From a virus: a stretch of DNA of 12,458 nt. The DNA is taken from the IMG/VR virus record IMGVR_UViG_3300045988_163868, positions 1 to 12,458 of that record; one strand, 5' to 3'. A program made the position numbers and the translations under genes. Positions 1 through 12,458 of this stretch are shown here, piece after piece (position 1 is the first letter of the stretch; each line of letters starts with the position of its first letter). The notes under the pieces were generated by a model. The model saw only the letters and a list, made by a program, of their open reading frames with translations. It did no database searches and had not been told where the DNA came from.

Positions 1-6
1 AAAGTA

Positions 7-24
7 TTGTTAAACTTTTAACAA
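7..24. promoter_or_regulatory. 18-bp palindrome TTGTTAAA-CT-TTTAACAA, 6 nt from the terminus (mirror copy at 12435-12452)
   Basis: The 8-bp arms are exact reverse complements with a 2-bp centre. The same arms recur at 12295-12312 outside the ITR. Candidate protein-binding site at the origin. Confidence 0.6.
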
Positions 25-48
25 ACTTTGCTGATCCCCGCTTTAGTG

Positions 49-104
49 TGCTAAAGTGCTAAAGTGCTAAAGTGTTAAAGTGGTAATGCTTTAAAGTGCT
101 AAAG
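49..104. repeat. 8-bp periodic repeat block inside the ITR (TGCTAAAG family); mirror copy at 12355-12410
   Basis: Seven consecutive 8-mers kept in register: TGCTAAAG x3 (49-72), TGTTAAAG, TGGTAATG, CTTTAAAG, TGCTAAAG. A 9-bp-arm hairpin is embedded (AATGCTTTA 85-93 / TAAAGCATT 100-108). CTTTAG(41-46)/CTAAAG(51-56) form a further dyad. More CTAAAG(C/T)(G/A) motifs follow at 139-154 and 187-194. Confidence 0.8.
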
Positions 105-115
105 CATTAAAACAT

Positions 116-166
116 ATTAAAAAGGTAGGTTTATTATGCTAAAGCGCTAAAGCATAAAACCTACCT
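116..166 (-). terminator. Rho-independent terminator ending the minus-strand gene array
   Basis: On the minus strand, AGGTAGGTTTTATGCT (151-166) pairs with AGCATAATAAACCTACCT (123-140). This gives 10 + 6 bp with a 2-nt bulge and a 10-nt loop. It is followed immediately by TTTTTAATATGTTTT. The hairpin starts 40 nt downstream of the ATPase stop codon (206-208). Confidence 0.8.
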
Positions 167-205
167 ATATAATATATTTTAGTGTATTAAAGTGTTAAAA
201 CGGTA

Positions 206-1291
206 TCAACTCAAAAATATTTGTTGTGTTTTTGATTGCTCTAAAATCCAATTGCGGAAGAGTTCGCCGACTTCGTTTGTTGAATAAAAAACTTTTTGTT
301 TGTTTATTAAATTTCTAATCAGCAATCCGATTTTGTTATCGCAACTATTCAGATTTATAAAATAATTTGTTTTAGTGCTTGGTGTAAAATCAAAAATGAT
401 GTTATCTGCATTAAACTCTTTTGTTTGCATATGTACAGTTAAAAATACTTCGGAGTTTTTTTCACAAATGTTTATACACATAAATTTATGATTAAAAAAT
501 ACAAACGCTTTATATATAATATTATCAGAAGTAACATTTTTTGGAATATGTGCATAGTTTTTAATCTCCCACTTTCCCTCGGTTATCATTTTTGTACGTG
601 GATTGGTAAACGCAAAATATTTACTTACTTTTTTGGTGTTCTCTGTATCTGAACAGTACTCAACAGCTATCTGTAATTTTTCGTTGCCATATCCGAACGG
701 ATAAACTTTGATTTCGCCTTGTTGCATATTCTCAACATCGCTGATACCCATTTCGGAAAAATAAATGCAATATTTGTTAACAGTATTAGCAATCATATAT
801 ATTTTTGTGCCGTCACGGTCACGCAATAATGACGAGAGTACATTACAAAATATAATAAATTCGTCTGCTAAATAATGACCTCTGGTGATAAATTCGTCAA
901 ACAGAATATAATCAAAATATCCGTTATCTGCACCTTTTGCGCTCTCCCATACATTCAACGCAAAAGTTTGACAAAACGGATCTACTTCACAATCAACAAT
1001 TTTATTATCTTCTATTTTAGCAAAATAAAATCCTCTGTTATAATATCGGATGTAATTCCACTGCCCTGCCGTGATAGTTTCAATATCGTGCGGTGCAAAC
1101 AGATTTTTTATAAATTTTGGTGTTATATCTTCGGCGTATCTTCTTATATACGCCAATCGTTTACCGCTTTTGTAATGTTCTCTGACTGCTTTATTACACA
1201 CTGAATATGTTTTTCCGTTACTTCTTTTTCCGATTATTACATTATAATCGGCTTGCTTTTTATCAATATTTTTAAGGCTGTAATACTTCAT
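206..1291 (-). CDS. DNA encapsidation (packaging) ATPase, phi29 gp16-like
   Basis: 361 aa. Walker A region YNVIIGKRSNGKTYS...AYIRRY parallels phi29 gp16 LNFVIGARGIGKSYA...IYVRRY. Walker B YILFDEFI parallels TIVFDEFI. SD TGGAGT lies 7 nt before the ATG, which starts 3 nt after the polymerase stop. Confidence 0.92.
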   Translation of the reverse strand: MKYYSLKNIDKKQADYNVIIGKRSNGKTYSVCNKAVREHYKSGKRLAYIRRYAEDITPKFIKNLFAPHDIETITAGQWNYIRYYNRGFYFAKIEDNKIVDCEVDPFCQTFALNVWESAKGADNGYFDYILFDEFITRGHYLADEFIIFCNVLSSLLRDRDGTKIYMIANTVNKYCIYFSEMGISDVENMQQGEIKVYPFGYGNEKLQIAVEYCSDTENTKKVSKYFAFTNPRTKMITEGKWEIKNYAHIPKNVTSDNIIYKAFVFFNHKFMCINICEKNSEVFLTVHMQTKEFNADNIIFDFTPSTKTNYFINLNSCDNKIGLLIRNLINKQKVFYSTNEVGELFRNWILEQSKTQQIFLS

Positions 1292-1294
1292 TGT

Positions 1295-3463
1295 TTATAC
1301 TCCATTTCTAAAATTATCAAAAAAAGTGATTGCAAGTTCGTCACGCTTTATACCAAGCGAAAAATTATTTCCGAGTTCGTCAAAAACAAAATCACACAAA
1401 AATGACATAAATTCGGATGACATCTGCATAGTAAACTCTGTTTCTTCTAAGTGAATACAACTTTTAATGTGTTCAATCTCTGAATTTCCGTTATAGTCAA
1501 TCAGAGTAACATTAATTTCATCATCAATGTATGTATGTGTCAATTTTCCTGTTCTGCCTTTTGGTATTTTCAAGTTTGAATTGAACATATTAAAAAACTT
1601 GTTAACATTATTGTTGCATACTGACATCATATAAGGTACTGCATATTTTTTGTTAATACCCGATACGGTAAAGTTTACACTACCGTCATCATATTGATAA
1701 CAATATCTTTTCGCTCCGAGTGTTTTAAACTTCGAGTAGTTTTTTTCAATATCCCAAACCCCGAGTGGATATTTTTTATCGTTTTTTGTAGGTTGCGTTA
1801 ACTCAAAATCAATATTGTAAAAATCACAACATTGTTTTAACTCTTTTGCAACACGCTTGTTGTAAGTATTTATGTATTCTTTGTGTTGTTCAAAATTTAA
1901 AAATTTAATACTGTCAGTATCAGAGTAGATGACATCTTCATTGATGTTTTTAATACCATCAAAAAGTTCATACCTCGCCCACGAAGTTACCCAAACGCCC
2001 CAAGAATATAAAAGAAATTGATTGTAGTTATATTTGTTATCTTTTAAACAATCTTCAATGCTCTTGCGTTCTTTCTGCCATTCGCCGCCGTATAAGATTT
2101 CATCATTGCACGGATTTGTTACGCACATACCATACGCACTATTTAACATACCCTTTTTTATTAAGTATTCTTTTTCATATCCTGCAACACCTTTTAACAT
2201 TGTTTTATCGTTATATAACTTTAATATACATTCAATAATTGTTTTAGGTAAATACTCATATTTGCTGTACCAAAAATTTTTAATTGTGATACTGTCATAT
2301 GTATAAAAATCTTGAATACATTTAAAATCAACATCATTACAGTAAGTTATAATATTGTCAGCTTGCATTATTCTCCCGTTATCGAAAACACCATTTGTGC
2401 AGACAGAGCATTTGGCTCGTTGTATGATGTGATGTGATGTTTTTGCTTTTAAATTAGTAAACATAATTTCAAAAATGCAAGGAAATTTATTTATAAATTC
2501 TGTAAAAGTATCATAATCTATAACATCAATTTTCTTAAATTTTTTCATAGGAAATTTATGTCTAATCATTACTGACGGATAACTACTTGTAAAGTCAATG
2601 CTACTTACATCATTTAGTGTTAAACCAACATAGTTACAATTTGCGTGAGTGTAACCGCCCTGAAAAATTTTGTTAAGCAAAATAAATTCATCGGTTTCGG
2701 GTGAGTTATCTTTGATAAACATACGATACTTTTTATAATTGTTTTCTTTTAAAGCGTTGCGGCAAAATCGTCTAACATATCCTGTTTTGGTAAGCGGTAT
2801 GTTCAAAATATTGTTTTCATTCAAAGCTATTTCTTCATTGATATAGTATTGCAAAATTTTTATATCATATTCGCAGTAGCCGAGTTCGGCGGGGGTCAAC
2901 GGTGTACTTGAATTACGATATAATCTATAATCCAAGTCACCGATTTTTTTGTTTATTTTTACACTTGTTAGATTTTTTGCTATTGTTTCAAGACTTGAAC
3001 AACTTAGCATAAAACTACATTTAAACTCAAAAACTTCGTCTAATGTGAAGTATATCGGCTTTCGCTCTTGTCGAGCAAACATATTTGTAATTTTAAATTC
3101 TTTTCTTAAGAATTGAAATTCATACGCTAAATTCTGTACATAAATTATAATTTTTCTATTGCTGTTTAGTTTGAAATACTCTTTTAACATCATTAGAAAA
3201 TCTTTTAAGTCCTGCCAAGTACGACCAAAATAAACATCTTGACCTACACCGAATTGCCAAATATACATAACTGCTGCTTTGTTATATTTTTCTGTTTCAT
3301 TCGCCTTTGGAATTATTGAGCAACCGTTTTCATAATAAAAACTTGTTGTCTCAATATCAAAAGAAAATGCAGTGTTATAATATTCAATTTTTTGTTTTTT
3401 TGTTTTCTTAGTAACAATATCAAATTTATAATTCTGTACAGGGAAAACAGAAAAATTTAGCAT
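1295..3463 (-). CDS. Protein-primed family-B DNA polymerase (phi29 gp2-like)
   Basis: 722 aa. Motifs seen: ExoI FDIETT; ExoII-like QNLAYEF; SSLETIAK; ExoIII YCEYD; motif A DFTSSYPS; motif B KKGMLNSAYG; WVTSWARYE (phi29 FITAWARYT); motif C YSDTDS; KxY as GAKRYCY. The segment between motifs A and B aligns in length with phi29 TPR1. SD GAGGA lies 7 nt before the ATG. Confidence 0.97.
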   Translation of the reverse strand: MLNFSVFPVQNYKFDIVTKKTKKQKIEYYNTAFSFDIETTSFYYENGCSIIPKANETEKYNKAAVMYIWQFGVGQDVYFGRTWQDLKDFLMMLKEYFKLNSNRKIIIYVQNLAYEFQFLRKEFKITNMFARQERKPIYFTLDEVFEFKCSFMLSCSSLETIAKNLTSVKINKKIGDLDYRLYRNSSTPLTPAELGYCEYDIKILQYYINEEIALNENNILNIPLTKTGYVRRFCRNALKENNYKKYRMFIKDNSPETDEFILLNKIFQGGYTHANCNYVGLTLNDVSSIDFTSSYPSVMIRHKFPMKKFKKIDVIDYDTFTEFINKFPCIFEIMFTNLKAKTSHHIIQRAKCSVCTNGVFDNGRIMQADNIITYCNDVDFKCIQDFYTYDSITIKNFWYSKYEYLPKTIIECILKLYNDKTMLKGVAGYEKEYLIKKGMLNSAYGMCVTNPCNDEILYGGEWQKERKSIEDCLKDNKYNYNQFLLYSWGVWVTSWARYELFDGIKNINEDVIYSDTDSIKFLNFEQHKEYINTYNKRVAKELKQCCDFYNIDFELTQPTKNDKKYPLGVWDIEKNYSKFKTLGAKRYCYQYDDGSVNFTVSGINKKYAVPYMMSVCNNNVNKFFNMFNSNLKIPKGRTGKLTHTYIDDEINVTLIDYNGNSEIEHIKSCIHLEETEFTMQMSSEFMSFLCDFVFDELGNNFSLGIKRDELAITFFDNFRNGV

Positions 3464-3466
3464 TTG

Positions 3467-4141
3467 TTATTCCTCTTCTCTTTTGAAATCAGTATCTCCG
3501 TATTTGACTAATAACCGTCCGTTTGATGAAAAATCGTTCAAAATTGCTGTTGTATCATAATCGTATGAGTTCATATTATTTGCTAAATTTTCAAGTATGC
3601 TTGAATAGTTTTCGCCGCTTTCAATTCTTGCTTTTGTGATAGCCAAAATGTCAGAGTACAAACTACCTAACACATTTGTATTAAAACCGAGATTTTTCAA
3701 GTCAGTGAACAGATTATCAACAAGTTCAAAAGTCTTTTTGATTGAAATTTTTATAGGTCGTGTTCTTTTACTTCGTTGCGCTTTCATTGTTTCAATTCGT
3801 TCAAAACTTGCTTGTCTTGCTTTCTGTTCTTTTTTTACTGCTGTAACTGTAATGTCGCTTGCTAAAAAATTTCTAACTTGCAAAAATTGAGTTACTAATT
3901 GCTGTTTGCTCTTTTCTTTTGTAGCTGACGAAAAGTAACCGCTTTTCGTTCCAAATCCGTTCGTATTATGTAATAGTGCTGAAAATTCTTGATTATATTG
4001 TTCGCTTTGATTTTGCAAATTTGCGTTATATAATCGGCGCAAACGCTTATTTGCAATAGATACTTCTTTTTTTATAAGCTGTTGCAAGTCTGCAACTGTT
4101 AAATCTTTAACAAGTGAATAATCTAATTTTGCATAACTCAT
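3467..4141 (-). CDS. Candidate terminal (priming) protein
   Basis: 224 aa, basic and predicted helical (KRSKRTRPIKISIKK), with an acidic C-terminal tip. It sits immediately upstream of the polymerase and is translationally coupled to it (3-nt gap), as gp3-gp2 are in phi29. The size is comparable to the phi29 TP, which I recall as about 266 aa. I can see no reliable sequence similarity by eye, so the call rests on synteny and on the ITR/PolB context requiring a TP. Confidence 0.45.
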   Translation of the reverse strand: MSYAKLDYSLVKDLTVADLQQLIKKEVSIANKRLRRLYNANLQNQSEQYNQEFSALLHNTNGFGTKSGYFSSATKEKSKQQLVTQFLQVRNFLASDITVTAVKKEQKARQASFERIETMKAQRSKRTRPIKISIKKTFELVDNLFTDLKNLGFNTNVLGSLYSDILAITKARIESGENYSSILENLANNMNSYDYDTTAILNDFSSNGRLLVKYGDTDFKREEE

Positions 4142-4154
4142 TTAGCACACCTCA

Positions 4155-6281
4155 TTAAATATAAAAACCGTTTTGCAAAATTCTTTTTATCTCGTTTTTT
4201 TCGGCGCTTGAGCAATTAAACAAAATTTGCGGATTGCTCACTACTGTATATCCGCTTAAATTTTGCAATTTTTCTTTAAAGCTACACGCATACCCTACAG
4301 TTGTACCGTAATTTTCGGGAACATTTGTTTGTGGTGATTTAATTATCAAGTAACATTTTTGCGGTAAATAAGTATTTACACTTGATGAATTATTGCCGAC
4401 GGATTGATAATAGGACGGCTGTAAAAACCCGCTTGCAAGATTATTTGCGATATTCAATGAACTTTGAACGGGTGTATTTTCTATATTAGAAACATTAGGC
4501 ACAGCGGCAGTTATTGCATTGATATATGACTTTGCATACTCTGTCGAGATGTTTCCTGTCATATTTATATCAACAGCGCAATTTCCTGTTTTGGTAAAAA
4601 TTGGTAAATTATCAGCAAAAACGACCGCCGAGCAAGAACCTGTTACTAAATCAATAATCATTTTTACTTTCAGCGTTTTGCCTAAAAAATCCTCTGGATT
4701 TAGTACAATTTTACCGCAATATGGGATTACAAGTTCACATTCCGAGAACGGTGCAAAATCTAAAAAATTATTGAAAAATGACGGATAATTACATTGACCT
4801 AAATCGAAAATGCAGTCAATTTCATTTGGAATTTTTAAACCCGAAACGGTTGTTTGTTGCCGTCCGAGTGTGATAATCTCATTGTCAATCGCTTTCAGTT
4901 TTTTTGAAACATCAAACGGAAATAATCTTAAGTCTATTAACGCATTCATAGGATTTTCACCCATTAATTTTAAGCTTTCGATTATTTGATTAAATATATC
5001 GCTGTCGCTGTTCCATAAATATTTGGAAAGTTCAGATACATTTTTTGCGTTAATTGCATAACATCTATTAAAAACTCCCAATGTTGTTAACTTCGGGTGA
5101 TTTAATTCAATTCCTTTTACATAATTGTTTGTGTCTGGATTTTCTTTTACACCGTTATCTTTTTGCCATTTATCAGGTGTTTGCATTTCGGGTGTTATAT
5201 TTTCAGATATTTTTTTTCCTCTGACATAATCACCGATAAAAAAACCCTCTTCTGTTTTTATCGGAAAATAAATTTTGTCTGTTGCGTTTGAATAATCGCT
5301 ATTTATTCCGCCGCTGATTTCTGATATAGCATTTCTGCTTTCAGCCCAAATCATACCGAAACACGAAATCATTTTCCGAAATTCATTTAATATATCTTCG
5401 TCATCTGAAATTCCTGCAATAAGAGCATAATTTCCGCTAGCTTCATCAACAATAGCCGAAAACGGCTTAGGGCAATATGCTATTGTTGAATAGTTTTTAA
5501 TAGTGCCCTGTTCGGTAACCCAGCTATAAAAATCATTCAAATTAACTTGACTTCTTGTTATTAATAAGTTACTGTACGCATCAACTTTTTTTAATGCGCT
5601 ATTTTCAAAAACATATCTTTCAGCATCTTTAATATTTAATATGTTTTGAAAAACAGAAGTGTCCGGGTCACTAGGAAAATTAGTACCATATCGATTTACT
5701 AATGAAATTGAAAATCCGGTACAGTATTTATAATCAATCCACTGACCTTTGCCGAACTCGTCGATTGTGAGTGTTGCTCTTACAGAAGTGTCGTTTTTAA
5801 TTGCGTCTTTTAATGTTTTATAACAGAAAAATTCTACAGTAAGTATAACATCTGCATAAATAAATTTTATATAAGGTCGCCAATATTGTGCAATATAACG
5901 AGCGTTTTGATAACTTTCAGCAACATTGTACCCATATTCGTGATAATCTGTTCCGTCAAGATAAATTTGTCCTACATTTTCAAGCTCATTAATGCAATAA
6001 TATGTATAGTCTTGACGAACAAAACTTGTATCATATAAAATCTTGCCTGTAATCGCTAAATCTTTTTGAACTGTAATATTAACAAGTCTGCAAAGACTGT
6101 AATCACCTTTTGACATACCGATACAAAAAGAAATATCAAAAAGTTTGTTTAAAGGCTGTAAATATCGGTAGCTTTGGTCGCTTGATTTATATGTTGTAAA
6201 TGATTTATCTACTACAGTAATGTTATTAGAAGATAAATTCCTAAAATTTTCTTCTTTATATATGTTAGTATTAAGTTGCAT
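4155..6281 (-). CDS. Tail knob / distal tail protein, phi29 gp9-like (large C-terminal part)
   Basis: 708 aa. FSECELVIPYCGKIVLNPEDFLGKTLKVKMIIDLVTGSCSAVVF resembles gp9 [47 protein letters not shown]. The extreme C-terminus SSAEKNEIKRILQNGFYI resembles gp9 NNNDLQEIRTIFDNGITLW. The ATG overlaps the previous ORF by 11 nt, with GGAGG 11 nt upstream. Confidence 0.7.
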   Translation of the reverse strand: MQLNTNIYKEENFRNLSSNNITVVDKSFTTYKSSDQSYRYLQPLNKLFDISFCIGMSKGDYSLCRLVNITVQKDLAITGKILYDTSFVRQDYTYYCINELENVGQIYLDGTDYHEYGYNVAESYQNARYIAQYWRPYIKFIYADVILTVEFFCYKTLKDAIKNDTSVRATLTIDEFGKGQWIDYKYCTGFSISLVNRYGTNFPSDPDTSVFQNILNIKDAERYVFENSALKKVDAYSNLLITRSQVNLNDFYSWVTEQGTIKNYSTIAYCPKPFSAIVDEASGNYALIAGISDDEDILNEFRKMISCFGMIWAESRNAISEISGGINSDYSNATDKIYFPIKTEEGFFIGDYVRGKKISENITPEMQTPDKWQKDNGVKENPDTNNYVKGIELNHPKLTTLGVFNRCYAINAKNVSELSKYLWNSDSDIFNQIIESLKLMGENPMNALIDLRLFPFDVSKKLKAIDNEIITLGRQQTTVSGLKIPNEIDCIFDLGQCNYPSFFNNFLDFAPFSECELVIPYCGKIVLNPEDFLGKTLKVKMIIDLVTGSCSAVVFADNLPIFTKTGNCAVDINMTGNISTEYAKSYINAITAAVPNVSNIENTPVQSSLNIANNLASGFLQPSYYQSVGNNSSSVNTYLPQKCYLIIKSPQTNVPENYGTTVGYACSFKEKLQNLSGYTVVSNPQILFNCSSAEKNEIKRILQNGFYI

Positions 6282-6774
6282 TACCTGTTCCGCCTCCGCT
6301 CACATTTAAAATAAAGTTATATGAATTTTCGTCAGCTGAATTTAAGTTAAATTCATTGTCTGAAAACTCAATAATTTTCATTGTTTTTTCGTTTTTTAAG
6401 GGGAGTAAATCGTCACGGACAAAATTTGGTTTTATATTTTCTTGTCTTGATATTAAACACTCAAGATTTAAAATTTGTGATTGATATGTCATTAACACAT
6501 CAAGCGCTAAATTTAATTTAATTCTTTCTGCTGACATTAATTCAAAACTTTCAATGAAATAATATCTTGTCACTTCGTTTGAATTAAACGATATTGACAT
6601 ATAATTAACTTGAGCAAAATTTGATATGAAATTAGGATAATTTAGAATAACTTCACAACTTAAAGAATTAAATTTACAACTTATTATATATTTACCATTA
6701 ATTATTCCCTGTTGAGATAAAGTTTTTTGAATTTTGTTAGGCAAGTCATTTGTTTTATATGTTATAATATCCAT
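6271..6774 (-). CDS. Tail knob N-terminal-domain-like protein (separate ORF)
   Basis: 167 aa. VNYMSISFNSNEVTRYYFIESFELMSAERIKLNLALDVLMTY....LISRQENI resembles the gp9 N-terminus [45 protein letters not shown]....FIVREHV. SD GAAAGG lies 9 nt before the ATG. Confidence 0.6.
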   Translation of the reverse strand: MDIITYKTNDLPNKIQKTLSQQGIINGKYIISCKFNSLSCEVILNYPNFISNFAQVNYMSISFNSNEVTRYYFIESFELMSAERIKLNLALDVLMTYQSQILNLECLISRQENIKPNFVRDDLLPLKNEKTMKIIEFSDNEFNLNSADENSYNFILNVSGGGTGNAT

Positions 6775-6796
6775 AATTTTTAACCTTTCTTATTAT

Positions 6797-6842
6797 AAAG
6801 TGTTTCACGTGAAACATTAAAAAGTGTTTCACGTGAAACATT
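6797..6842. promoter_or_regulatory. Twin perfect 16-bp palindromes TGTTTCACGTGAAACA (6801-6816 and 6825-6840) inside a 22-bp direct repeat with a 24-bp period
   Basis: AAAGTGTTTCACGTGAAACATT occurs twice, at 6797-6818 and 6821-6842. It lies in the 75-nt gap between the capsid stop (6850) and the next start (6774). In minus-strand RNA each copy can hairpin and the first is followed by CUUUUU. Alternatively the two self-complementary copies pair with each other into a 16-bp perfect stem with an 8-nt loop. Confidence 0.75.
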
Positions 6843-6849: not shown

Positions 6850-7995
6850 TTATGGTTTGCCTGTAACATCTGCGACAACAAAAACAATACAGTTTTCGTT
6901 AGTATCATTGATATATGAGCAATCCCATTTATGAAAATAGTTGATAAACTCGCCTTTGGCGTTGTACTGACTTGTTGTTCTAGGATTTTCATTACATACA
7001 GCGCATGCATTTTCATCAAAGATTACACCGATAATACCTGTTTTTTCAACATCTGAACCGCTCGCAGTTTTTACAGAAATCTTGCTTATTTCATTAAAAT
7101 CGAAGTTGTCACCTGCTCCGCTACCCTGCCAATACGGTACAGTAGTATAACCAGCAAGCTGCACAAAATTGTTATGATATGTATCAGAGTAAAGATACAC
7201 CTCCGCTGACTTGTCAAACTCAGACAACATAACAATTTTTTGATTTTCTTTTGGTGTAAAGGTTACATAACCTTTATCATTAAAGAGCATTGACGCTCTT
7301 GTCAGATAATCGCTGTAAAGACTAATCTGCTTGCAAGCATAACGCAAAAATTCTTTGTCGCTTAATGCTTTAGCCGCTGCCAGTGTTGTTCCCTTTTCAG
7401 TATTATAATTTGCAAGCAAATTAATAACATTGTTGTTAGCCGCAAACTTTTCAGCAATCAAGTTGTTAATAGTGCGCATTATCATATTGTCAGTGCAAAG
7501 TGTCATTTTCATAATAACACGATTTTCAATCATAGCGAAAAATCTTGACATCTCGCTTGGTGATGTGAACGCTGACTTTATCTGCTCTTCAACAAATGAT
7601 ATTGGTATCTCAAATGTTGTCTTACTGTTGAAAAATTTTGCTTTTACGGTCGGTGGATTGAAAATAAAAGGGTCGTAACTCTGACCTTTTGTCAATTTCC
7701 ATGACGGATTTTCTTCGACGTCTGGGAGTTCACAACGGATTTTTTCCATAATAGAACCAAATTCCCAACTATCTTTGAGAATGTTCGGCGCTGTTGAATT
7801 GTAAGTCCTGTCCCAAAATACAACTCTACCGATACGGTCAATTAATGATCTTGTGTAATTCTCAATGTCAACCGCACCGAGAACCTCACGACCTACATCA
7901 ACGATATTCGTCAAGTCCTCTTTAACTACTGCGCTTTCGCCGATAATTTCTGCGTTAATTGTGTTTAAAATCGCCGCAATTTGTGTAACTTTCAT
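6850..7995 (-). CDS. Major capsid protein, phi29 gp8-like
   Basis: 381 aa. ENYTRSLIDRIGRVVFWD parallels phi29 gp8 NDFITSLVDRIGLVVIRQ at a comparable N-terminal position. The size fits an HK97-fold capsid lacking the C-terminal Ig domain. A structured element follows the gene. Confidence 0.8.
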   Translation of the reverse strand: MKVTQIAAILNTINAEIIGESAVVKEDLTNIVDVGREVLGAVDIENYTRSLIDRIGRVVFWDRTYNSTAPNILKDSWEFGSIMEKIRCELPDVEENPSWKLTKGQSYDPFIFNPPTVKAKFFNSKTTFEIPISFVEEQIKSAFTSPSEMSRFFAMIENRVIMKMTLCTDNMIMRTINNLIAEKFAANNNVINLLANYNTEKGTTLAAAKALSDKEFLRYACKQISLYSDYLTRASMLFNDKGYVTFTPKENQKIVMLSEFDKSAEVYLYSDTYHNNFVQLAGYTTVPYWQGSGAGDNFDFNEISKISVKTASGSDVEKTGIIGVIFDENACAVCNENPRTTSQYNAKGEFINYFHKWDCSYINDTNENCIVFVVADVTGKP

Positions 7996-8015
7996 TTTTT
8001 CAAAAGTCCTTTCTT

Positions 8016-8738
8016 TTATAAATTTAGAATATCAAAAAACAGCAATTTTGCGACATCTTCAAAAAATATTTTAATTGTTGAAAAGTCCGCAATTGCTCTT
8101 TCTTGTTCGAGCATTTGTTGTGTTGTAGTAACTCCGATATTGCCTTTTCGAGTTAGCTCATTTATTGTTTGCTCTGTTCCTGTTTCCTTGTTAGTAACTG
8201 TCGAGTTGCTTTTAGCTGTATTTTCGCCTGTTATGTTTGAATTTCCTGTTAATTCATTTTTAGAATTATTAACAAAAGCTGTACTATCAAAACTTGTGTT
8301 GCTGTCTGTTGATGTATTGCTTGTTGTGTTATTAGCGCTATTAGTGCCGCTTTCGCTTGCTGTTCCCTCTGACGTTCGTGTCAAATTCGGTGTTCTTGTT
8401 TCGTTTCCATTTTCAGTCATTGAATAATTCTCAATCGGATTATACTCAACTGTTTCAGTAGCAACAAGTTTGATATATTTGTTTTTGTTAAGATTATATA
8501 CAACTTTCGCTCTTTTGTAATATGTGTTATAATCAGCAATTTTGTTGCAATCAATAATCATATATCTATACTTGTATAACTCCAAAAACATATCTGATAA
8601 ATCCGATGTTGAAAAATTAAACGGAGTTGCTATATCTGTTGCGTAATCAAAAAAATTAGCAAAATTAGCTTTGTTTTTTTCTGCAAAATCTTCAAGTGTT
8701 TCAAGTTCAACTCCGCCATATCCGCATAATAAACTCAA
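8016..8738 (-). CDS. Putative lower collar / head-tail adaptor protein with an S/T/N-rich central region
   Basis: 240 aa. TTG start with SD GGAGTGA 7 nt upstream. It directly follows the connector gene (4-nt gap), as gp11 follows gp10 in phi29. The conserved-looking C-terminus is RKGNIGVTTTQQMLEQERAIADF. The function is assigned by position only. Confidence 0.4.
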   Translation of the reverse strand: MSLLCGYGGVELETLEDFAEKNKANFANFFDYATDIATPFNFSTSDLSDMFLELYKYRYMIIDCNKIADYNTYYKRAKVVYNLNKNKYIKLVATETVEYNPIENYSMTENGNETRTPNLTRTSEGTASESGTNSANNTTSNTSTDSNTSFDSTAFVNNSKNELTGNSNITGENTAKSNSTVTNKETGTEQTINELTRKGNIGVTTTQQMLEQERAIADFSTIKIFFEDVAKLLFFDILNL

Positions 8739-8742
8739 AATA

Positions 8743-9654
8743 TCACTCCGTTTCTTCTGTTTCTTCTGATTTTTCTATTGTTTTTTGTTTCCAAATATCA
8801 GACAAAACAACATCACAATTAAGATTAAAAAGATTATTAAGTGATTGTACATTGTTTTTCCTCATTTCCAACATTGCATTGATATTAACTTCTGTTGTTG
8901 TATCATTAACTGCAATTTCGTCACTAACGAGCCTTTCTTTTTTCATATTGAAATTAGAATTTACGCCGATTGCGTGATAAAATTGTGCCAAAAAATATTG
9001 CTGAATATCAATTAATGTTTGCAGTGTGGGACTAACAGAGCCGCCACCTGTTGCGAGCGGTGATATTTCAATAGTGCTTGCTATATCGCTTTTTGCTATT
9101 GCAAACCCGTCACCGTTATAAATTTTTTTAAACACTTCTGAAACACTTTTATAAGCGTTTTCAGTATCAGCTGACGCAAAAGCAAAAAATCTTGAATTTT
9201 TTTGAGCAACATTTATAGAGCACTCATTATCAGATAATAAAATAGCTGTTCGATAAATCAGAGAATATAAGCCGCCTTTTTTAACTGACAAAAGCGGAAA
9301 GTCGTTATACTGTATATCTTTAGCTGAATTATACAAAATAACACAATCTTTGTTAATTGTAAATGTATGACTGCCCAAAACGGGATTGGCTATTATATAC
9401 TGCGATGGCATATAATACTCGTTCGGCTCACCTGCAAACCCACCGCTTGCTACATAAAAATCACCATTTAATTTAAAAAAAGCACAATGACCTTTTAAAA
9501 ATAAACATCTGTTCAAATAGTTGACATCAACGCTTTTTGGTAAATTTTCCCATACAAACATATTTGATACTTTATCATACAACATATTAAAGTAATGAAC
9601 GAACCCATCAGCCGAGGTTAAACCTCGACTGACATCATTAGTAATTTTTGCCAT
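8743..9654 (-). CDS. Head-tail connector (portal / upper collar), phi29 gp10-like
   Basis: 303 aa; phi29 gp10 is about 309 aa as I recall. [30 protein letters not shown] parallels gp10 [54 protein letters not shown] parallels [26 protein letters not shown] AGGAG is upstream and the ATG abuts the holin stop. Confidence 0.92.
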   Translation of the reverse strand: [303 protein letters not shown]

Positions 9655-10059
9655 TTATTCCCCACTCCTTTTATTAATTTGTGAAAGAATTTTTTTCAAC
9701 TTTTTCGGAATAGGCAAACCAAGTTTTGCCGAATTTTCAAGAATAGATATTCCCTCATTTGCAAGATAAAAGAAAATAACTGCTGTTCTAATAGCTGTTC
9801 CCTCTTGCAAAATAAATAAATCAATTAAATGAGCAACACCTACTAAAATGAAAATCATCACTTTTTTACAAATTCCCTTAAAGCCAATTTCACTCGAAAG
9901 CTCTTTTGAAATTATTGCATTAATAACACCTGTCAAATAATCAATAATTACAAATGCAATCAACGCATATAAAAAACCGTCACCGCCACCGAAAAACCAA
10001 CCGAGAAATGCCCCGAGCAGAGAAAAAACAACTTGCATTTGTAGTAAAAACTCTCTCAT
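9655..10059 (-). CDS. Holin, phage phiLC3 / TcdE family (Phage_holin_4_1-like)
   Basis: 134 aa with three hydrophobic segments. Family-typical strings: LIAFVIIDYLTGVINAI, SSEIGFKGICKKVMIFILVGVAHLID, RTAVIFFYLANEGISILENSAKLGLPIPKKLKKIL. The start overlaps the previous stop (TAATG). Confidence 0.93.
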   Translation of the reverse strand: MREFLLQMQVVFSLLGAFLGWFFGGGDGFLYALIAFVIIDYLTGVINAIISKELSSEIGFKGICKKVMIFILVGVAHLIDLFILQEGTAIRTAVIFFYLANEGISILENSAKLGLPIPKKLKKILSQINKRSGE

Positions 10060-10466
10060 TATTTTACTTTAACTGCTAAGTAGCTGTTGCCTGTTTTACT
10101 TACACCATATGAAAAATAAAAAACAAATTCCTGCAACACGCTTTCGTCTTCTGCAACATCTGCTATAATGTCTGAAATAGTATCAATAACTACTTTAGAG
10201 CTTGCCAAATAAAACTCCGTTTCGTCATTAGCGTTTACTGTTTCAAAAATTGCAATTTCTGCTACCTCTTTGCTGTCAGCGCCTGCGTTCTTTATTTTCT
10301 CTGCTTTTTCTGTATCTGTAATAATAGTGATTGACTTCACATTACCGATACAAAAGCCGTTTTCGCTGTTCTTTGTGAGTTCTGCAATTGATAAAGCGTC
10401 AATGTTCTTTAACTTAATTTTTTCAACTGTTGTAAGTTCGTGTGTTGATGTGAATACCTTTGCCAT
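10059..10466 (-). CDS. Acidic hypothetical protein, first gene of the late block (candidate scaffold / SSB / other)
   Basis: The ORF track starts at a TTG (10544) with no SD. The ATG at 10466 (MAKVFTS..., 135 aa) has SD AAAGGA about 11 nt upstream, so I prefer it. My count is about 22 D/E against 14 K. I recognised no motif. Confidence 0.6.
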   Translation of the reverse strand: MAKVFTSTHELTTVEKIKLKNIDALSIAELTKNSENGFCIGNVKSITIITDTEKAEKIKNAGADSKEVAEIAIFETVNANDETEFYLASSKVVIDTISDIIADVAEDESVLQEFVFYFSYGVSKTGNSYLAVKVK

Positions 10467-10560
10467 AATTTTTTGTTTCCTTTCTTTTTTGAAAATTTTG
10501 AATTGTGTGTTTTTGTTACTTTTTTGAATTTGAGTAACCAACAAATCCGCTTGAACATTT

Positions 10561-10578
10561 AGAATTTTTAAAAATTCT
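10561..10578. promoter_or_regulatory. 18-bp perfect palindrome AGAATTTTTAAAAATTCT
   Basis: An exact reverse-complement palindrome, 1 nt from 38-bp element B. It overlaps a -10-like TAAAAAT on the minus strand. Confidence 0.5.
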
Positions 10579-10579
10579 A

Positions 10580-10617
10580 TGGTAGTAGTTTTATTTTAAT
10601 TTGCAACTACCAAACAA
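10580..10617 (-). promoter_or_regulatory. Conserved 38-bp intergenic element, copy B
   Basis: TGGTAGTAGTTTTATTTTAATTTGCAACTACCAAACAA matches copy A (11632-11669) at 35 of 38 positions. It contains the dyad TGGTAGT/ACTACCA. It lies between the 94-aa ORF and the late block. Confidence 0.7.
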
Positions 10618-10640
10618 ATTTTTATTTAAACTAATTGCAA

Positions 10641-10925
10641 TTAAGTTGATTTTGTTTCAATCTGCAATGCTCTAGTGATTAAAAATTCTTGTATTTCTAC
10701 TAAGTCATTTAAAATTCTGTAGTATTGTTGTTTTTTTGTTTTATACCTTTCGTAATTTGTCTCTCTCAAAGTATCAACAGTTTTTTCTATTTGTAATATG
10801 TCTGTTGAATATTCATTTGCCCATTGCAAATATTTTTTCGCATATTCATTTTCAAAAAGCGACAAATACAAATTGATTTTTAATTGATTAGTTTTGCCTT
10901 TAAAAATTGATTTACAATTATACAT
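10641..10925 (-). CDS. Hypothetical protein (94 aa, helical, slightly basic)
   Basis: ATG with SD GGTGA upstream, 4 nt after the stop of the HTH gene. No motif recognised. Confidence 0.6.
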   Translation of the reverse strand: MYNCKSIFKGKTNQLKINLYLSLFENEYAKKYLQWANEYSTDILQIEKTVDTLRETNYERYKTKKQQYYRILNDLVEIQEFLITRALQIETKST

Positions 10926-10929
10926 ATTA

Positions 10930-11241
10930 TCACCGATAGAAATATTTGACTACTGCATATATTATTTCCTTTCCTTTTTGCAAATGTCTACTAACTGTAC
11001 TTTGTGCAATATTCAGCTTTTGCGCAATATCTTTATTTTTCAAACCTTTCACATGCAACTCAATAATTTGTTTCTGTCGCTCTGTCAAATTCTCTGATAT
11101 TACATTATTTACAATATCGTCAAAAGTTCTGCGATATTTGTAATTGTTAGCATTTGAATTTTGTTTCAAATATTGCATATATTCAATTTTGTTAGTGTTT
11201 TCTTCACTCAAGTATATTTTTACTGAATGATTAGTAATCAA
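10930..11241 (-). CDS. Sigma-70 region-4-like / LuxR-GerE-type HTH DNA-binding protein
   Basis: 103 aa. LTERQKQIIELHVKGLKNKDIAQKLNIAQSTVSRHLQKGKEII fits the sigma r4_2 / GerE pattern (L..RQ..+..L...G....+IA..L.I...TV..+L). TTG start with SD GAGGTGA about 6 nt upstream. The start overlaps the upstream stop (TTGA). No sigma region 2 is present. Confidence 0.75.
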   Translation of the reverse strand: MITNHSVKIYLSEENTNKIEYMQYLKQNSNANNYKYRRTFDDIVNNVISENLTERQKQIIELHVKGLKNKDIAQKLNIAQSTVSRHLQKGKEIIYAVVKYFYR

Positions 11242-11597
11242 GTTTTATCACCTCGCAAGCGCTGATTAACTTTCTTTAGCATTGTTACATTATGCTTTAT
11301 AACTTCATTAGCTATCTTATATTTTAGTTCAAAGTCAACTATTATAAAGATATGCGCTTTCCGTAAAATTAAGTCACACACCCACGGTACATCTTCAAAA
11401 CTCATTTCATTTGTATGTGCTACAATGTCAATTGCTATGTCAATAATATCATCTGTTGTGATATTATCTTTCTGCGCTTTAGTCAATAAATTGCTAACAT
11501 CTTCGCTATCGCCTAATCTATACCATTTCTGACTGCTGCATAACTTTTCTAACTCTGCTGCCGAAATCTTAATATTAAATTCACAATCATACTTCAT
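11238..11597 (-). CDS. Hypothetical protein (119 aa)
   Basis: ATG with SD AAGAGGT 8 nt upstream. Translationally coupled to the HTH gene. No motif recognised. Confidence 0.6.
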   Translation of the reverse strand: MKYDCEFNIKISAAELEKLCSSQKWYRLGDSEDVSNLLTKAQKDNITTDDIIDIAIDIVAHTNEMSFEDVPWVCDLILRKAHIFIIVDFELKYKIANEVIKHNVTMLKKVNQRLRGDKT

Positions 11598-11631
11598 AAA
11601 GTAGTACCTCTTTTCTATATTAAAACTGTTT

Positions 11632-11669
11632 TGGTAGTAGTCTTATTTTAACTTGCGACTACCAAACAA
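11632..11669 (-). promoter_or_regulatory. Conserved 38-bp intergenic element, copy A
   Basis: TGGTAGTAGTCTTATTTTAACTTGCGACTACCAAACAA lies in the 80-nt gap between the 83-aa and 119-aa ORFs. On the minus strand a -10-like TAATAT begins 9 nt after the element. Copy B has TAAAAAT at almost the same offset. Confidence 0.7.
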
Positions 11670-11677
11670 GTGTTAGT

Positions 11678-11929
11678 TTAACAACTATACTTTAATACCT
11701 CATTTTCCATTTCCTGTTCACGACATACAAAATCATCAATCATTTCTTTTGCTTCGTCAATGTTGTTAGCGGAAGCAATCAAATTATATGTGTTATTATA
11801 ACATATGCCGTATTTTTCGCCGTTGTGAGCATAAGGCTTTATAATTCTTTTTGTGTTGACAAAAAAGAAAACATCATCGTAATTTTTGAGTTGGTTATCT
11901 GCGTATTTTTTTAATTGTTTTGTTGTCAT
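11678..11929 (-). CDS. Hypothetical early protein (83 aa)
   Basis: ATG with strong SD AAGGAGA 9 nt upstream. No motif recognised. Confidence 0.65.
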   Translation of the reverse strand: MTTKQLKKYADNQLKNYDDVFFFVNTKRIIKPYAHNGEKYGICYNNTYNLIASANNIDEAKEMIDDFVCREQEMENEVLKYSC

Positions 11930-11942
11930 AATAAAAATCTCC

Positions 11943-12080
11943 TTAATTTAATTCTATACACACTGTTCGCCATTCGGGGTGTTTTATTAGTATTTCATCA
12001 ATTACATTCTCTGTTAAATCTTCACACCACTGAATAATCTCACCTAGTTCATTGACAATAGCAGTTTTAAATTTTAACAT
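11943..12080 (-). CDS. Small acidic early protein (45 aa from the SD-preceded ATG; 60 aa if the ATG at 12125 is used)
   Basis: The ATG at 12080 has SD AGAGGTGG 5 nt upstream. The upstream ATG (12123-12125) has no SD and sits 7 nt after the -10 box, so it could only be used on a leaderless mRNA. Confidence 0.6.
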   Translation of the reverse strand: MLKFKTAIVNELGEIIQWCEDLTENVIDEILIKHPEWRTVCIELN

Positions 12081-12132
12081 AATTTCCACCTCTTTCCGCA
12101 CTGTAAGTGCTGTAACTTCTTTCATTGTCTAT

Positions 12133-12161
12133 ATTATACTACAAAATTCTAAAAAAAGCAA
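12133..12161 (-). promoter_or_regulatory. Early sigma-A-type promoter
   Basis: On the minus strand: TTGCTT (12156-12161), a 17-nt spacer, then a perfect TATAAT (12133-12138). It is the only consensus -10 with correct spacing that I found upstream of the first gene. Confidence 0.7.
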
Positions 12162-12177
12162 GTTACAATTTTGTAAC
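12162..12177. promoter_or_regulatory. Dyad GTTACAA-TT-TTGTAAC abutting the -35 box (candidate operator)
   Basis: The 7-bp arms are exact reverse complements. The dyad lies immediately upstream of the -35 hexamer. A related GTTAC(T)...(A)GTAAC dyad occurs at 10515-10538. Confidence 0.5.
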
Positions 12178-12183
12178 CAAATA

Positions 12184-12293
12184 GATCAGGAATGGATCAG
12201 GAATGGATCAGGAATGGATCAGGAATGGATCAGGAATGGATCAGGAATGGATCAGGAATGGATCAGGAATGGATCAGGAATGGATCATGAATG
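12184..12293. repeat. Tandem array: 10 copies of the 11-bp unit GATCAGGAATG (9 perfect, last copy GATCATGAATG)
   Basis: Counted directly from the sequence. There are no spacers. The array lies between the early promoter/operator and the inner edge of the right ITR, and has no counterpart at the left end. Confidence 0.97.
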
Positions 12294-12294
12294 G

Positions 12295-12312
12295 TTGTTA
12301 AAAATTTAACAA
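12295..12312. promoter_or_regulatory. Third copy of the terminal 18-bp palindrome (TTGTTAAA-AA-TTTAACAA), internal to the right ITR
   Basis: It has the same 8-bp arms as 7-24 and 12435-12452 and differs only in the 2-bp centre. It lies between the 11-bp array and the ITR boundary (12317). Confidence 0.6.
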
Positions 12313-12316
12313 TATA

Positions 12317-12458
12317 TTAGCATAATAAACCTACCTTTTTAATATGTTTTAATGCTTTAGCACTTTAAAGCATTACCACTTTAACACTTTAGCACTTTAG
12401 CACTTTAGCACACTAAAGCGGGGATCAGCAAAGTTTGTTAAAAGTTTAACAATACTTT
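12317..12458. repeat. Right inverted terminal repeat (142 bp)
   Basis: A perfect reverse complement of 1-142. The window ends exactly at ...TACTTT-3', which is 5'-AAAGTA on the other strand. Confidence 0.95.

Follow-up and report, generated by a model that had tools for sequence, protein, structure and literature searches.

Phi29-like phages with genomes of 11-14 kb have already been described, and phi29-like protein-primed podophages have the hallmark set p2, p8, p9, p10, p11 and p16 (PMC11476376). The Astrithrvirus-like phages, which fall into major capsid protein (MCP) cluster 23, are Salmonella astrithr, Astrid and assan, Pectobacterium DU_PP_III, Acinetobacter Phanie and Vibrio K58 g2 (PMC11476376). 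They infect Gram-negative Gammaproteobacteria and have linear genomes of 11-12 kb with 13-15 genes, in which the block of terminal protein (TP), polymerase and ATPase comes first, 2-4 small genes lie on the opposite strand, and a CHAP or amidase endolysin is encoded after the tail genes. The cultured Ruminococcus podophages phiRa02 and phiRa04, from rumen R. albus, have 12.98 kb, 35% GC and 15-16 ORFs (PMC5723332). Phi29 (Salasmaviridae) has 19.3 kb, 27 genes, a 6-nt inverted terminal repeat (ITR), divergent early and late operons and a pRNA.

The DNA analysed here (the window, 12,458 nt, GC 0.31) is very likely the complete linear dsDNA genome of a small phi29-like podophage of Ruminococcus intestinalis, or of a very close relative, from the human gut. 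Like the Astrithrvirus-like phages, it has a small N-part and a large C-part knob gene with Ig-like additions, a TP candidate of the same family, no appendage genes, and ITRs (171 nt in Phanie). Unlike them, it would infect a Clostridia species, its TP-polymerase-ATPase block comes last with all genes on one strand, and a phi29-type holin is present instead of an endolysin, none of which was found. The predicted lower collar has 240 aa, compared with 184 aa in astrithr.

Among cultured phages, the best matches come from the 11-12 kb Astrithrvirus/Phanie group, with 39-43% identity for the polymerase and 39-46% for the MCP. In neighbor-joining (NJ) trees of 13-14 taxa, astrithr and Phanie form the sister group of the window clade (bootstrap 100 for MCP, 100 for polymerase, 97 for ATPase and 58 for connector). 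The window shares with the wider Astrithrvirus-like cluster (Phanie, DU_PP_III) the size range of 11-14 kb, the split knob, and the monophyly of MCP, polymerase and ATPase in these trees. The genus threshold of ICTV is about 70% nucleotide-level similarity. The window lies outside the genus Astrithrvirus, as the proteins are 28-46% identical, nucleotide similarity is absent, and the whole window had no megablast match among 50,697 phage records. A Salasmaviridae/Picovirinae-like placement, suggested in the preliminary description, is not supported either: phi29 and GA-1 lie at a great distance from the window in the trees, the genes occupy a single strand, and neither a pRNA nor an appendage or lysin was found. 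To our knowledge, pRNA is known only in Bacillus relatives.

With phi29 the window shares the AAAGTA end, the family B DNA polymerase (PolB), the MCP, the connector, the lower collar, the knob N-domain, the gp16 ATPase and the gp14-type holin. However, the two have very little sequence identity (for the polymerase, a match emerges only at 6e-5), the phi29 knob is a single gene, and the phi29 scaffold, head fibre, gp12 appendages, gp13 tail lysin and gp15 endolysin are absent or undetected in the window. As judged from their description only, phiRa02 and phiRa04 have the connector, the family B polymerase and the gp16-type ATPase in common with the window, with the polymerase directly before the ATPase, and differ in their host and in an extra ORF with a transmembrane helix after the ATPase (PMC5723332). 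Amedibacillus AD70P2 and AD70P3 and the human faecal MT836125 and MT836155 are likewise gut phi29-like phages of 12.2-12.7 kb with hosts in or near the Bacillota. AD70P2 is almost unidirectional, and the lower collar, TP-candidate and 135-aa protein families occur both in this group and in the window. All four are more distant (MCP 29-36%, polymerase 31-35%) and have another gene order, and the knob is unsplit in AD70P2 and MT836155.

Much closer are uncultivated genomes in IMG/VR, ENA, Logan and NCBI, which have ITRs and the same gene order and of which none is classified or host-assigned in the records examined. The genomes of about 90% identity in IMG/VR, ENA and NCBI are all unclassified. 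IMGVR_UViG_3300045988_167490 (L007) is about 90% identical to the window over about 9.4 kb of 12.5 kb and, like L006 (_169488), has the same 15-gene plan. Most proteins of the close relatives are about 90% or more identical (range 77-96%), whereas the tail-knob pair of L006 and L007 has 40-45% identity and some early genes differ. L008 (_151080) and about 18 further contigs (12.4-13.3 kb) have the window layout at 61-63% MCP identity, and the group of L008 and L025 has a CHAP protein in place of the 135-aa protein and holin pair. At least 530 IMG/VR contigs encode a related MCP, and 1240 lower-collar homologues were found, most on contigs of 11-14 kb. The idea of a distinct, very reduced new lineage therefore does not hold, since phi29-like phages of this size and these contigs are on record. 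By these sequence comparisons, neither the lineage nor the layout is unique, and the genome is of a numerous miniature phi29-like type already in public data.

Genome ends, gene layout and transcription signals

The perfect 142-bp inverted repeats reported in the preliminary description lie exactly at the window ends, and arm identity drops to background directly past position 142 (Table 1). A chance origin is ruled out because the repeats are perfect and sit exactly at both ends. The left ITR opens with 5'-AAAGTA, followed by the palindrome TTGTTAAAcTTTTAACAA (7-25). The terminal sequences compared were AAAGTATTG in the window, AAAGTAAG in phi29 and AAAGCATG in Cp-1, with the terminal hexamers AAAGTA in phi29 and AAAGCA in Cp-1. 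The window therefore has the ITRs and the reiterated terminal base of a phi29-like linear genome. The same-layout relatives L024 and L031 open with AAAGTACCCC, and L024, L027 and L031 all open with AAAGT(A). Adapter sequence abuts the start of L027, and Illumina adapter tails abut phage ends in the IMG/VR contigs L007, L027, L057 and L061.

All 15 ORFs, which fill the window, are on the minus strand, and an independent gene call on an identical contig gave the same 15 genes on one strand. ORFs on the plus strand are short, antisense and without family match, and no tRNA was found in the window. Two genes (for the 240-aa and 103-aa proteins) start with TTG. The genes are ordered as early genes, regulator, holin, connector, collar, capsid, tail, TP candidate, polymerase and ATPase. 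Thus, the 15 genes in about two thirds of the phi29 length (12458/19282 = 0.65), the single coding strand, unlike phi29, and the rearranged module order were all correctly described before, with the TP as a candidate only. The unidirectional permuted layout was found in 22 of the 86 related loci examined.

Table 1. Features of the 12,458-nt window, in order of position
Feature	Position	Strand	Evidence or remark
Left ITR	1..142		100% complementary to 12317-12458
8-nt reiteration GTGCTAAA, ~7 copies, also 16-/24-nt periods	48..111, mirrored 12348-12419		TRF
Strong stem-loop then U run, directly after last gene	105..184	-	MFE -30.1 kcal/mol
DNA packaging ATPase, phi29 gp16 type, 361 aa	206..1291	-	PF05894 2.8e-11; phrog_2150 1.6e-23
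Protein-primed family B DNA polymerase, 722 aa	1295..3463	-	phrog_1907 3e-62
Terminal protein candidate, 224 aa	3467..4141	-	Directly upstream of polymerase; family of Astrithrvirus gp02
Tail-knob large subunit, 708 aa	4155..6281	-	C-terminal ~300 aa, gp9 C-part; N-terminal ~400 aa variable
Tail-knob small subunit (gp9 N-part), 167 aa	6271..6774	-	phrog_2248 tail protein N-terminus 2.4e-7
Palindrome TGTTTCACGTGAAACA x2 between capsid and tail genes	6792..6842		TRF period 24, 96% match
Major capsid protein, 381 aa	6850..7995	-	PF25622 Phi29_MCP 3e-54, entire profile length
Predicted lower collar/tail tube (phi29 gp11 type), 240 aa, TTG start	8016..8738	-	Structure prediction
Connector/upper collar (gp10), 303 aa	8743..9654	-	PF05352 3.9e-23; phrog_2038 5e-34
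Holin (phi29 gp14 family), 134 aa	9655..10059	-	PF05105 3.4e-45
135-aa protein (161 aa if TTG at 10544 used)	10059..10466	-	Called as 135 aa on L004; homologue AD70P2_00009
94-aa protein	10641..10925	-	No family match
103-aa HTH regulator (sigma-70 region 4/GerE-LuxR type), TTG start	10930..11241	-	PF00196 1.5e-11; PF08281 6.4e-11
Three small early genes, 119, 83 and 60 aa	11238-11597, 11678-11929, 11943-12125	-	No family match
Promoter-like site TTGCTT-17-TATAAT, 7 nt before first ATG	12133..12161	-	Read from sequence
Tandem array, 11-nt unit AATGGATCAGG x10.5, between right ITR and first promoter	12180..12294		TRF score 216, 98% match
Right ITR	12317..12458		100% complementary to 1-142

A reiteration like that of the window is found in the ITRs of the uncultivated relatives L006, L007, L021 and L030 and of the distant MT836125, and may be a binding array for an origin protein. 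The hairpin after the last gene (z = -7.5; 0 of 200 shuffles fold as well) is probably the terminator of the single transcription direction. An Rfam scan of the window for pRNA or another RNA family gave only chance-level hairpin matches at 102-188. The palindromes between the capsid and tail genes, where a terminator scan found a stem of 16-20 bp, could form an attenuator hairpin downstream of the capsid gene, or else a pair of operators. The site before the first ATG is promoter-like; a consensus scan misses it because the -35 hexamer matches at only 3 of 6 positions, and the 77 sites that the scan reported in the window are not above expectation (64 +/- 8 in shuffled sequence). The 11-nt array contains 10 of the 14 GATC sites of the genome and has 4 copies in L007.

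Virion, replication and lysis genes

The gp2, gp8, gp10 and gp16 homologues named in the preliminary description (PolB, capsid, connector and ATPase) were confirmed by profile searches, while gp9 stood only in part, as two genes rather than one. The phrog_2150 match spans the full length of the gp16-type ATPase, which has no nuclease large-terminase domain. The AF2 model of the 240-aa protein (mean pLDDT 68) has helical ends and long beta-hairpins, and its top three Foldseek matches were phi29 gp11 (6qz9, 3.3e-5), Andhra 8egr_I (2.1e-4) and P68 6iac_B (2.7e-3). A PDB profile search with this protein gave 6qz9 as the only match. On the strength of the model, the 240-aa protein is the lower collar, so that the connector (p10), the lower collar (p11) and the MCP are all represented.

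The 167-aa protein matches astrithr gp09 (4.6e-8) and Phanie gp9 (1.6e-5), and a second search round reached residues 91-133 of phi29 gp9 (3e-5) and the N-termini of unsplit knob proteins. The C-part of the 708-aa protein matches those of astrithr gp10, Phanie gp10 and the unsplit knob proteins of AD70P2 and MT836155. Directly, hhalign ties it only weakly to phi29 gp9 (P = 0.0011), and the connection otherwise runs transitively through the unsplit homologues. By these matches, the tail knob (p9) is divided between two genes, of 167 aa and 708 aa, like that of the Astrithrvirus-like phages. The N-part of the 708-aa protein has 8 relatives among 1.8e9 representatives, and its residues 79-121 match Ig_7 repeats. 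The whole protein is only 39-40% identical in L006 and L007, two genomes in which identity is about 90% or more for most other proteins, and its variable N-part is likely the host-binding part. Single-sequence and profile searches with the 708-aa protein gave no match among PDB sequences, and its AF2 model, built from 10 sequences, was unusable (pLDDT 36).

The 722-aa protein supplies the protein-primed family B polymerase that is a hallmark of phi29-like podophages. Its best PDB match is phi29 DNA polymerase (1xhx, 6.4e-5), and motifs A, B and C are present (DxxSxYP, KxxxNSxYG and YxDTDS). Pfam gave no match for the window polymerase itself and PF03175 for that of the related contig L100. The 224-aa protein is a putative TP from synteny and from the family shared with Astrithrvirus gp02: the family members Astrithrvirus gp02, Phanie gp2 and AD70P2_00013 each lie directly upstream of their own polymerase. 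No link was found between the 224-aa protein and the TPs of phi29, GA-1 and Cp-1 (hhalign) or PDB entries (profile search). Transcription in its single direction would reach the replication genes last, and these have no obvious promoter of their own. The 135-aa protein is possibly a single-strand DNA-binding protein (SSB), as phi29 gene 5 SSB was the best of 85 hhalign templates (P = 0.0022, weak). The early block (11238..12125) differs between close relatives, and Pfam at E up to 10 gave nothing credible for the proteins without family.

The 134-aa holin belongs to the same family as the holins of phi29, GA-1, Cp-1 and P68. Pfam (E up to 10) and PHROG searches found no peptidoglycan hydrolase, endolysin or tail lysin among the window proteins, and Pfam and PHROG gave no match to an appendage, tail fibre or head fibre, nor to an integrase or lysogeny gene. 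The earlier remark that a gp12-like appendage, head fibre, gp13/gp15-type lysin and integrase are missing agrees with these searches. That no hydrolase was found is unexpected in a phage whose host is Gram-positive, and the lytic cycle is accounted for only in part.

Host and alternative readings of the genome

The CRISPR repeat CTATAAATCTATCCATATTGGATTTTAAAT occurs in arrays of R. intestinalis NSJ-71 and two gut Clostridia MAGs, and the R. intestinalis arrays are of type I-B with dozens of matching spacers. When up to 5 mismatches are allowed, the phage group is matched by 46 of the 122 spacers in NSJ-71 and by 14 of the 24 in UMGS1995, so that a large share of host CRISPR memory is aimed at a 12-kb phage group. 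Seventeen of the NSJ-71 spacers hit the window itself at 2 mismatches or fewer, one of them at 37/37 positions, and the 5' flank is CCN in 22 of 34 cases. From these spacers, the host is R. intestinalis or a close relative, an assignment that is new here; the Firmicute host proposed earlier is directly borne out, as R. intestinalis is of the class Clostridia.

It is very improbable that the ITRs were made by the assembler or are the inner part of longer repeats, with a molecule that is circular, longer or incomplete. The largest default k of MEGAHIT is 141, and an ITR of 142 nt is about k+1; the MEGAHIT contigs of two relatives (ENA k141_94510, L021, and k141_522458, L100) also break within the ITR. 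However, the window has the AAAGTA end of phi29, ends within 7 nt of the adapter-flanked ends of L007, and lacks the direct terminal repeat that a circle would give. Relatives assembled elsewhere open with AAAG and have ITRs of varying length (55-617 nt), and therefore the ITRs are not a k-mer artefact. The probability that the phage is an integrated prophage, or an element resident beside the CRISPR locus, is close to nil, even though metagenome contig L004 (36 kb) has phage sequence contiguous with cas2-cas1-cas4-cas3 in a cas region 99.3% identical to that of NSJ-71. In L004 the CRISPR leader and first repeat are joined to window position 40. This junction is a spacer, because it lies exactly at the end of the first repeat after the leader, inside the ITR, with a CCC 5' flank, and integration was rejected. 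Moreover, ordinary spacers occupy the same place in NSJ-71, the other phage end is the L004 contig end within a tandem repeat, and the window has no integrase. A freshly acquired spacer was caught in the same sample, which makes this an active phage-host pair in the gut.

A further reading is that the virion cannot infect alone and takes a tail or the means of lysis from a second phage that shares its host. Phanie is reported to depend on a helper myophage, whose contractile tail it requires, and relatives with a Phanie-like knob architecture have been suggested to need a helper likewise (PMC11476376). In favour of this reading, the clade of the window and that of Astrithrvirus and Phanie are sisters and have the Ig-decorated split knob in common, and neither an appendage or tail fibre nor a tail lysin or endolysin was found in the window. 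Yet the set of head, connector, collar and knob is complete and comes with its own holin, the lower collar is longer than in the Gram-negative group, nothing resembles an adaptor for a foreign tail, and no candidate helper was identified. In addition, near-identical genomes have exchanged the variable knob N-part, which is how an ordinary receptor-binding module behaves. We consider such helper dependence unlikely. Given the sister position, the Ig-decorated split knob and the lack of a peptidoglycan hydrolase and a receptor-binding appendage, one can also imagine a clade that depends on outside help in a broader sense (the tail or lysin of a co-resident phage, or host autolysins triggered by the holin) as a trait ancestral to the whole miniature phi29 branch; this, too, has a small probability.

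Proposed infection cycle and significance

We propose that the phage, probably strictly lytic, binds its host through the Ig-like variable N-terminal part of the 708-aa knob protein. By analogy with phi29, the 224-aa protein encoded ahead of the polymerase would act as TP, and the TP-polymerase complex would initiate within the 3'-TTT end of each ITR, at an internal T, and then slide back, which is possible because the terminal AAA is reiterated. The 8-nt reiterations may bind an origin-organising protein. Transcription would run from a host-type promoter beside the right ITR through the early genes, the HTH regulator, the holin, the structural genes and the TP/polymerase/ATPase genes, and would end at the strong hairpin overlapping the left ITR. 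The gp16-type ATPase would then package the TP-capped DNA through the connector, again as in phi29, and by our scaling from phi29, 12.5 kb may fit an isometric T=3 head.

Among tailed phages, this genome plan is one of the smallest, and the window shows it cleanly and in full, with a named human-gut host assigned through direct CRISPR evidence. The absence of a recognisable cell-wall hydrolase is a point worth follow-up; if dependence on outside help were true, it would be an ancestral trait of the miniature phi29 branch, including phages of Gram-positive hosts. Of the phages found so far that infect Gram-positive bacteria, those of this clade are the closest to the Gram-negative Astrithrvirus/Phanie group, and the position of the clade is informative on how phi29-like phages moved between types of cell envelope.

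Genome ends and terminal repeats

Both extremes of the window consist of an inverted terminal repeat (ITR) of 142 nt without a mismatch, and inside position 142 the identity of the two arms falls at once to background. Three lines of sequence evidence indicate that these ends are real termini. The window starts with AAAGTATTG, as compared with AAAGTAAG in phi29 (ITR also given in PMC11476376) and AAAGCATG in Cp-1, and the relatives L024 and L031, which have the same layout, begin with AAAGTACCCC, while L032, L035 and L037 are short of it by 2-3 nt. Illumina adapter tails (..CTTCCGATCT), which are expected where many library fragments stop at a physical terminus, adjoin the phage ends in four IMG/VR contigs (L007, L027, L057 and L061); in L007 they lie at 1-10 and 12425-12434, and the terminus of this genome is 7 nt inward of the window terminus. 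The ITR length among the relatives ranges from 55 to 617 nt and is thus not set by the k of the assembler. The adapter tails contaminate those IMG/VR records, yet they are useful as a sign of physical DNA ends.

Much of the ITR is occupied by short reiterations (see the table), and reiterations of a similar kind were found in the related contigs L006, L007, L021 and L030 and in the distant human faecal contig MT836125. Over 33 nt, the internal palindrome next to the right ITR and the copy at the terminus (7-25 / 12434-12452) agree at 85% of positions. The adjoining 11-nt array has only 4 copies in L007. GATC occurs 14 times in the window, of which 10 lie in the array and 2 in the ITRs, leaving 2 for the rest of the genome, while about 35 are expected from the base composition, and this depletion is common to the clade among the relatives examined.

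Features of the window, with the match or observation on which each assignment rests
Feature	Position	Strand	Basis or observation
Inverted terminal repeat	1-142 and 12317-12458		142 nt, perfect
8-nt reiteration GTGCTAAA, also 16- and 24-nt periods	48-111 and 12348-12419		occupies much of ITR
Hairpin with U run, terminator candidate	overlaps left ITR		-30 kcal/mol
gp16-type packaging ATPase	206-1291	minus	PF05894, 2.8e-11
Polymerase (protein-primed PolB)	1295-3463	minus	PHROG 1907, 3e-62
Two tail knob genes	4155-6774	minus	iterative profile search
Palindrome TGTTTCACGTGAAACA, two copies	6792-6842		after capsid gene; can form 16-20 bp stem
Major capsid protein (MCP)	6850-7995	minus	PF25622, 3e-54
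Lower collar, 240 aa	8016-8738	minus	predicted structure and PDB profile match
Connector	8743-9654	minus	PF05352, 3.9e-23
Holin	9655-10059	minus	PF05105, 3.4e-45
HTH regulator (sigma-70 region 4 / GerE type)	10930-11241	minus	PF00196, 1.5e-11
Promoter-like TTGCTT-17-TATAAT	12133-12161		read from sequence; 7 nt ahead of first ATG
Tandem array, 10.5 copies of 11-nt unit AATGGATCAGG	12180-12294		between right ITR and first promoter
Degenerate internal copy of terminal palindrome TTGTTAAAnTTTTAACAA	12294-12312		just inside right ITR, adjoins tandem array

Gene content and the divided tail knob

Fifteen ORFs follow one another closely along the minus strand, giving a transcription direction from 12458 to 1, with short gaps between them, and a separate gene call on a metagenome contig of identical sequence returned the same 15 genes on one strand. 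The GC content is 0.31, and no tRNAs were found in the window. The repeat, the tiling and the independent call show that the preliminary description, made from the sequence alone, was correct in reporting terminal ITRs and 15 genes on a single strand.

Searches of Pfam and PHROG identified five proteins: the ATPase, the MCP, the connector, the holin and the HTH regulator. The polymerase had no match in Pfam, PF03175 included, even at E = 10. Nevertheless its top match across all PDB sequences was the DNA polymerase of phi29, in an alignment covering motifs A, B and C, and the polymerase of the related MEGAHIT contig L100 bears PF03175 in precomputed annotation. Screens relying on Pfam alone would overlook the polymerase of the window. 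Together, the Pfam, PHROG and PDB matches support the phi29-type ATPase, MCP, connector and PolB that had been claimed. The AF2 model of the 240-aa protein (pLDDT 68) shows helices at the ends and long beta-hairpins; in the PDB, the three structures most similar to it are lower-collar proteins, from phi29, Andhra and P68, and the sole match of the protein's profile to PDB sequences is phi29 gp11. The modelled fold and the profile thus identify this protein as the lower collar. It has 1240 homologues in a large protein collection, nearly all from 11-14 kb contigs.

The 708-aa protein was not recognized by any family library. An iterative profile search was run over 593 ORFs collected locally from 13 phi29-like genomes. 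The 167-aa protein directly matched gp09 of astrithr and gp9 of Phanie, both Astrithrvirus-like phages, and in round 2 it matched residues 91-133 of the phi29 gp9 N-terminal domain (E = 3e-5 for the 593-ORF database) and the N-terminal ends of the unsplit knobs in the Amedibacillus phage AD70P2 and the human faecal contig MT836155. The last 300 residues of the 708-aa protein matched the C-terminal parts of these unsplit knobs, astrithr gp10 and Phanie gp10. By these profile matches, the tail knob is the product of two genes, as described for the Astrithrvirus-like group in PMC11476376. The gp9-type knob of the preliminary description is thus present, but it is split, and a direct profile-profile comparison ties the 708-aa C-terminal part only weakly to phi29 gp9 (P = 0.0011).

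Among 1.8 billion representative proteins, only eight are related to the N-terminal 400 residues of the 708-aa protein, and residues 79-121 resemble Ig-like (Ig_7) repeats in large adhesins. The two knob genes are 40-45% identical to those of L006 (4920-7716) and L007 (5667-8301), while the other proteins are mostly about 90% identical or more (range 77-96%); L021 and L100 retain the 708-aa version of the window type. The divergence pattern of the 708-aa N-terminal part and the 167-aa protein looks like that of a swapped host-recognition cassette.

The 224-aa protein encoded directly upstream of the polymerase forms one family with the same-position proteins of astrithr, Phanie, AD70P2, HM2 and MT836155, and the Astrithrvirus member of this family was handled as a p3 counterpart in PMC11476376. 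Because no similarity to the terminal proteins (TPs) of phi29, GA-1 and Cp-1 was found, we infer only that it is a candidate TP. The gene upstream of that for the holin encodes a 135-aa protein; its top hhalign match of 85 small templates was phi29 SSB, a weak match (P = 0.0022). Five small proteins gave no credible Pfam match even at E up to 10. No endolysin or tail lysin was detectable among the window proteins with Pfam (also at E up to 10) or PHROG, in agreement with the earlier reading that a gp13/gp15-type lysin is absent. In L025, a member of the sister group that shares this layout, a 222-aa CHAP-domain protein is encoded upstream of the connector (1691-2359; E = 4e-5, narrowly below the Pfam cut-off), where the window has the 135-aa protein and the holin.

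Relatives, layout and a proposed mode of working

No nucleotide-level match was found among phage records. Among cultured phages, the closest proteins are those of the Astrithrvirus-like phages, which infect Gammaproteobacteria (polymerase 39-43%, MCP 39-46%), followed by those of the Amedibacillus phages at about 30%. In neighbour-joining trees with small sampling, astrithr and Phanie together formed the sister group of the window clade, with bootstrap values of 100 for MCP, 100 for polymerase, 97 for ATPase and 58 for connector. The preliminary description had raised the possibility of a distinct, very reduced lineage. The lineage is not newly distinct: a related MCP is present on at least 530 IMG/VR contigs, most of 11-13.4 kb; genomes about 90% identical to the window occur in IMG/VR, ENA, Logan and NCBI; a 2024 review catalogued more than 2000 phi29-like entries, 11-14 kb clusters included (PMC11476376); and the R. 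albus phages phiRa02 and phiRa04 (13 kb, 15-16 ORFs, polymerase then ATPase) were sequenced in 2017 (PMC5723332; JGI projects 1035884 and 1035887, with NZ_JUGR01000007.1 as an identical contig). The window is a real, complete genome that was correctly read in most respects, and it probably represents a new species in an uncultivated genus of known miniature phi29-like phages.

The unidirectional, rearranged layout is present as claimed but is not singular. Among 86 related loci (L006-L008, L023-L099 and reference phages), the structural order connector-collar-MCP-knobN-knobC is constant, while the TP-polymerase-ATPase block takes three positions: before the structural genes in the same direction (about 35 loci), after them without a change of direction, the arrangement of the window (22 loci), or after them and inverted (about 20 loci). 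The layout of the window is thus a recurrent variant.

At 12125-12138, a perfect TATAAT and the ATG of the first gene are 7 nt apart; this gene has either a leaderless mRNA or translation from Met16 with the Shine-Dalgarno sequence AAAGGAAG. The palindromes after the capsid gene could serve as a terminator; however, a repeat with TGTTTCACGTGA also lies among the early genes of L007 (698-767), which points to a regulator site rather than a terminator alone and suggests that the TGTTTCACGTGAAACA palindromes are a candidate regulator binding site. No promoter was visible for the TP and polymerase genes, which are distal in the single transcription direction, and no pRNA was found in the window.

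Apart from the sequence features themselves, the following steps are drawn by analogy with phi29. A TP-polymerase complex would start at each ITR end, sliding back on the terminal AAA, and the 8-, 16- and 24-nt reiterations, which persist as far away as MT836125, are probably the binding sites of an origin-organising protein. Transcription would begin at TTGCTT-17-TATAAT and finish at the hairpin overlapping the left ITR, and the double palindrome may attenuate read-through or be an operator to which the HTH protein binds. The gp16-type ATPase would package the DNA. The phi29 head has T=3, Q=5, and by our own scaling from it, 12.5 kb would suit an isometric T=3 head.

CRISPR evidence for the host

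The 36-kb ENA contig L004 passes from an identical phage copy at window position 40 into a cas2-cas1-cas4-cas3 locus, with the junction at the end of a 30-nt sequence placed where the first CRISPR repeat would be. At 12255-12470 of L004, a Ruminococcus intestinalis type I-B leader and first repeat abut window 40-75, with the 5' flank CCC, followed by 12.2 kb of phage. In a scan of one genome per species, the 30-nt repeat formed arrays in three genomes: R. intestinalis NSJ-71, uncultured Clostridium sp. UMGS1995 and Clostridia bacterium HGM12926. At ≤5 mismatches, 46 of the 122 spacers in NSJ-71 (L012, L013; about 38%) and 14 of the 24 in UMGS1995 (L009; 58%) match the 12-kb phage group (window, L006 or L007); 17 and 2, respectively, match the window at ≤2 mismatches. 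One NSJ-71 spacer matches window 163-199 at 37/37 positions, and CCN is the 5' flank in 22 of 34 good spacer matches. Such targeting of the phage group by these arrays is unusually concentrated, with several spacers in the ITR.

L004 and NSJ-71 share 99.3% identity in the cas region. Since the junction falls at the repeat end, the flank is CCC and the spacers match, L004 is a chimeric assembly through the newest spacer, freshly acquired from the phage ITR in the same sample. The CRISPR arrays firmly point to R. intestinalis or a close relative (Bacillota, Clostridia) as the host, independent evidence that bears out the Firmicute host proposed earlier. This firm host assignment is what the analysis adds.
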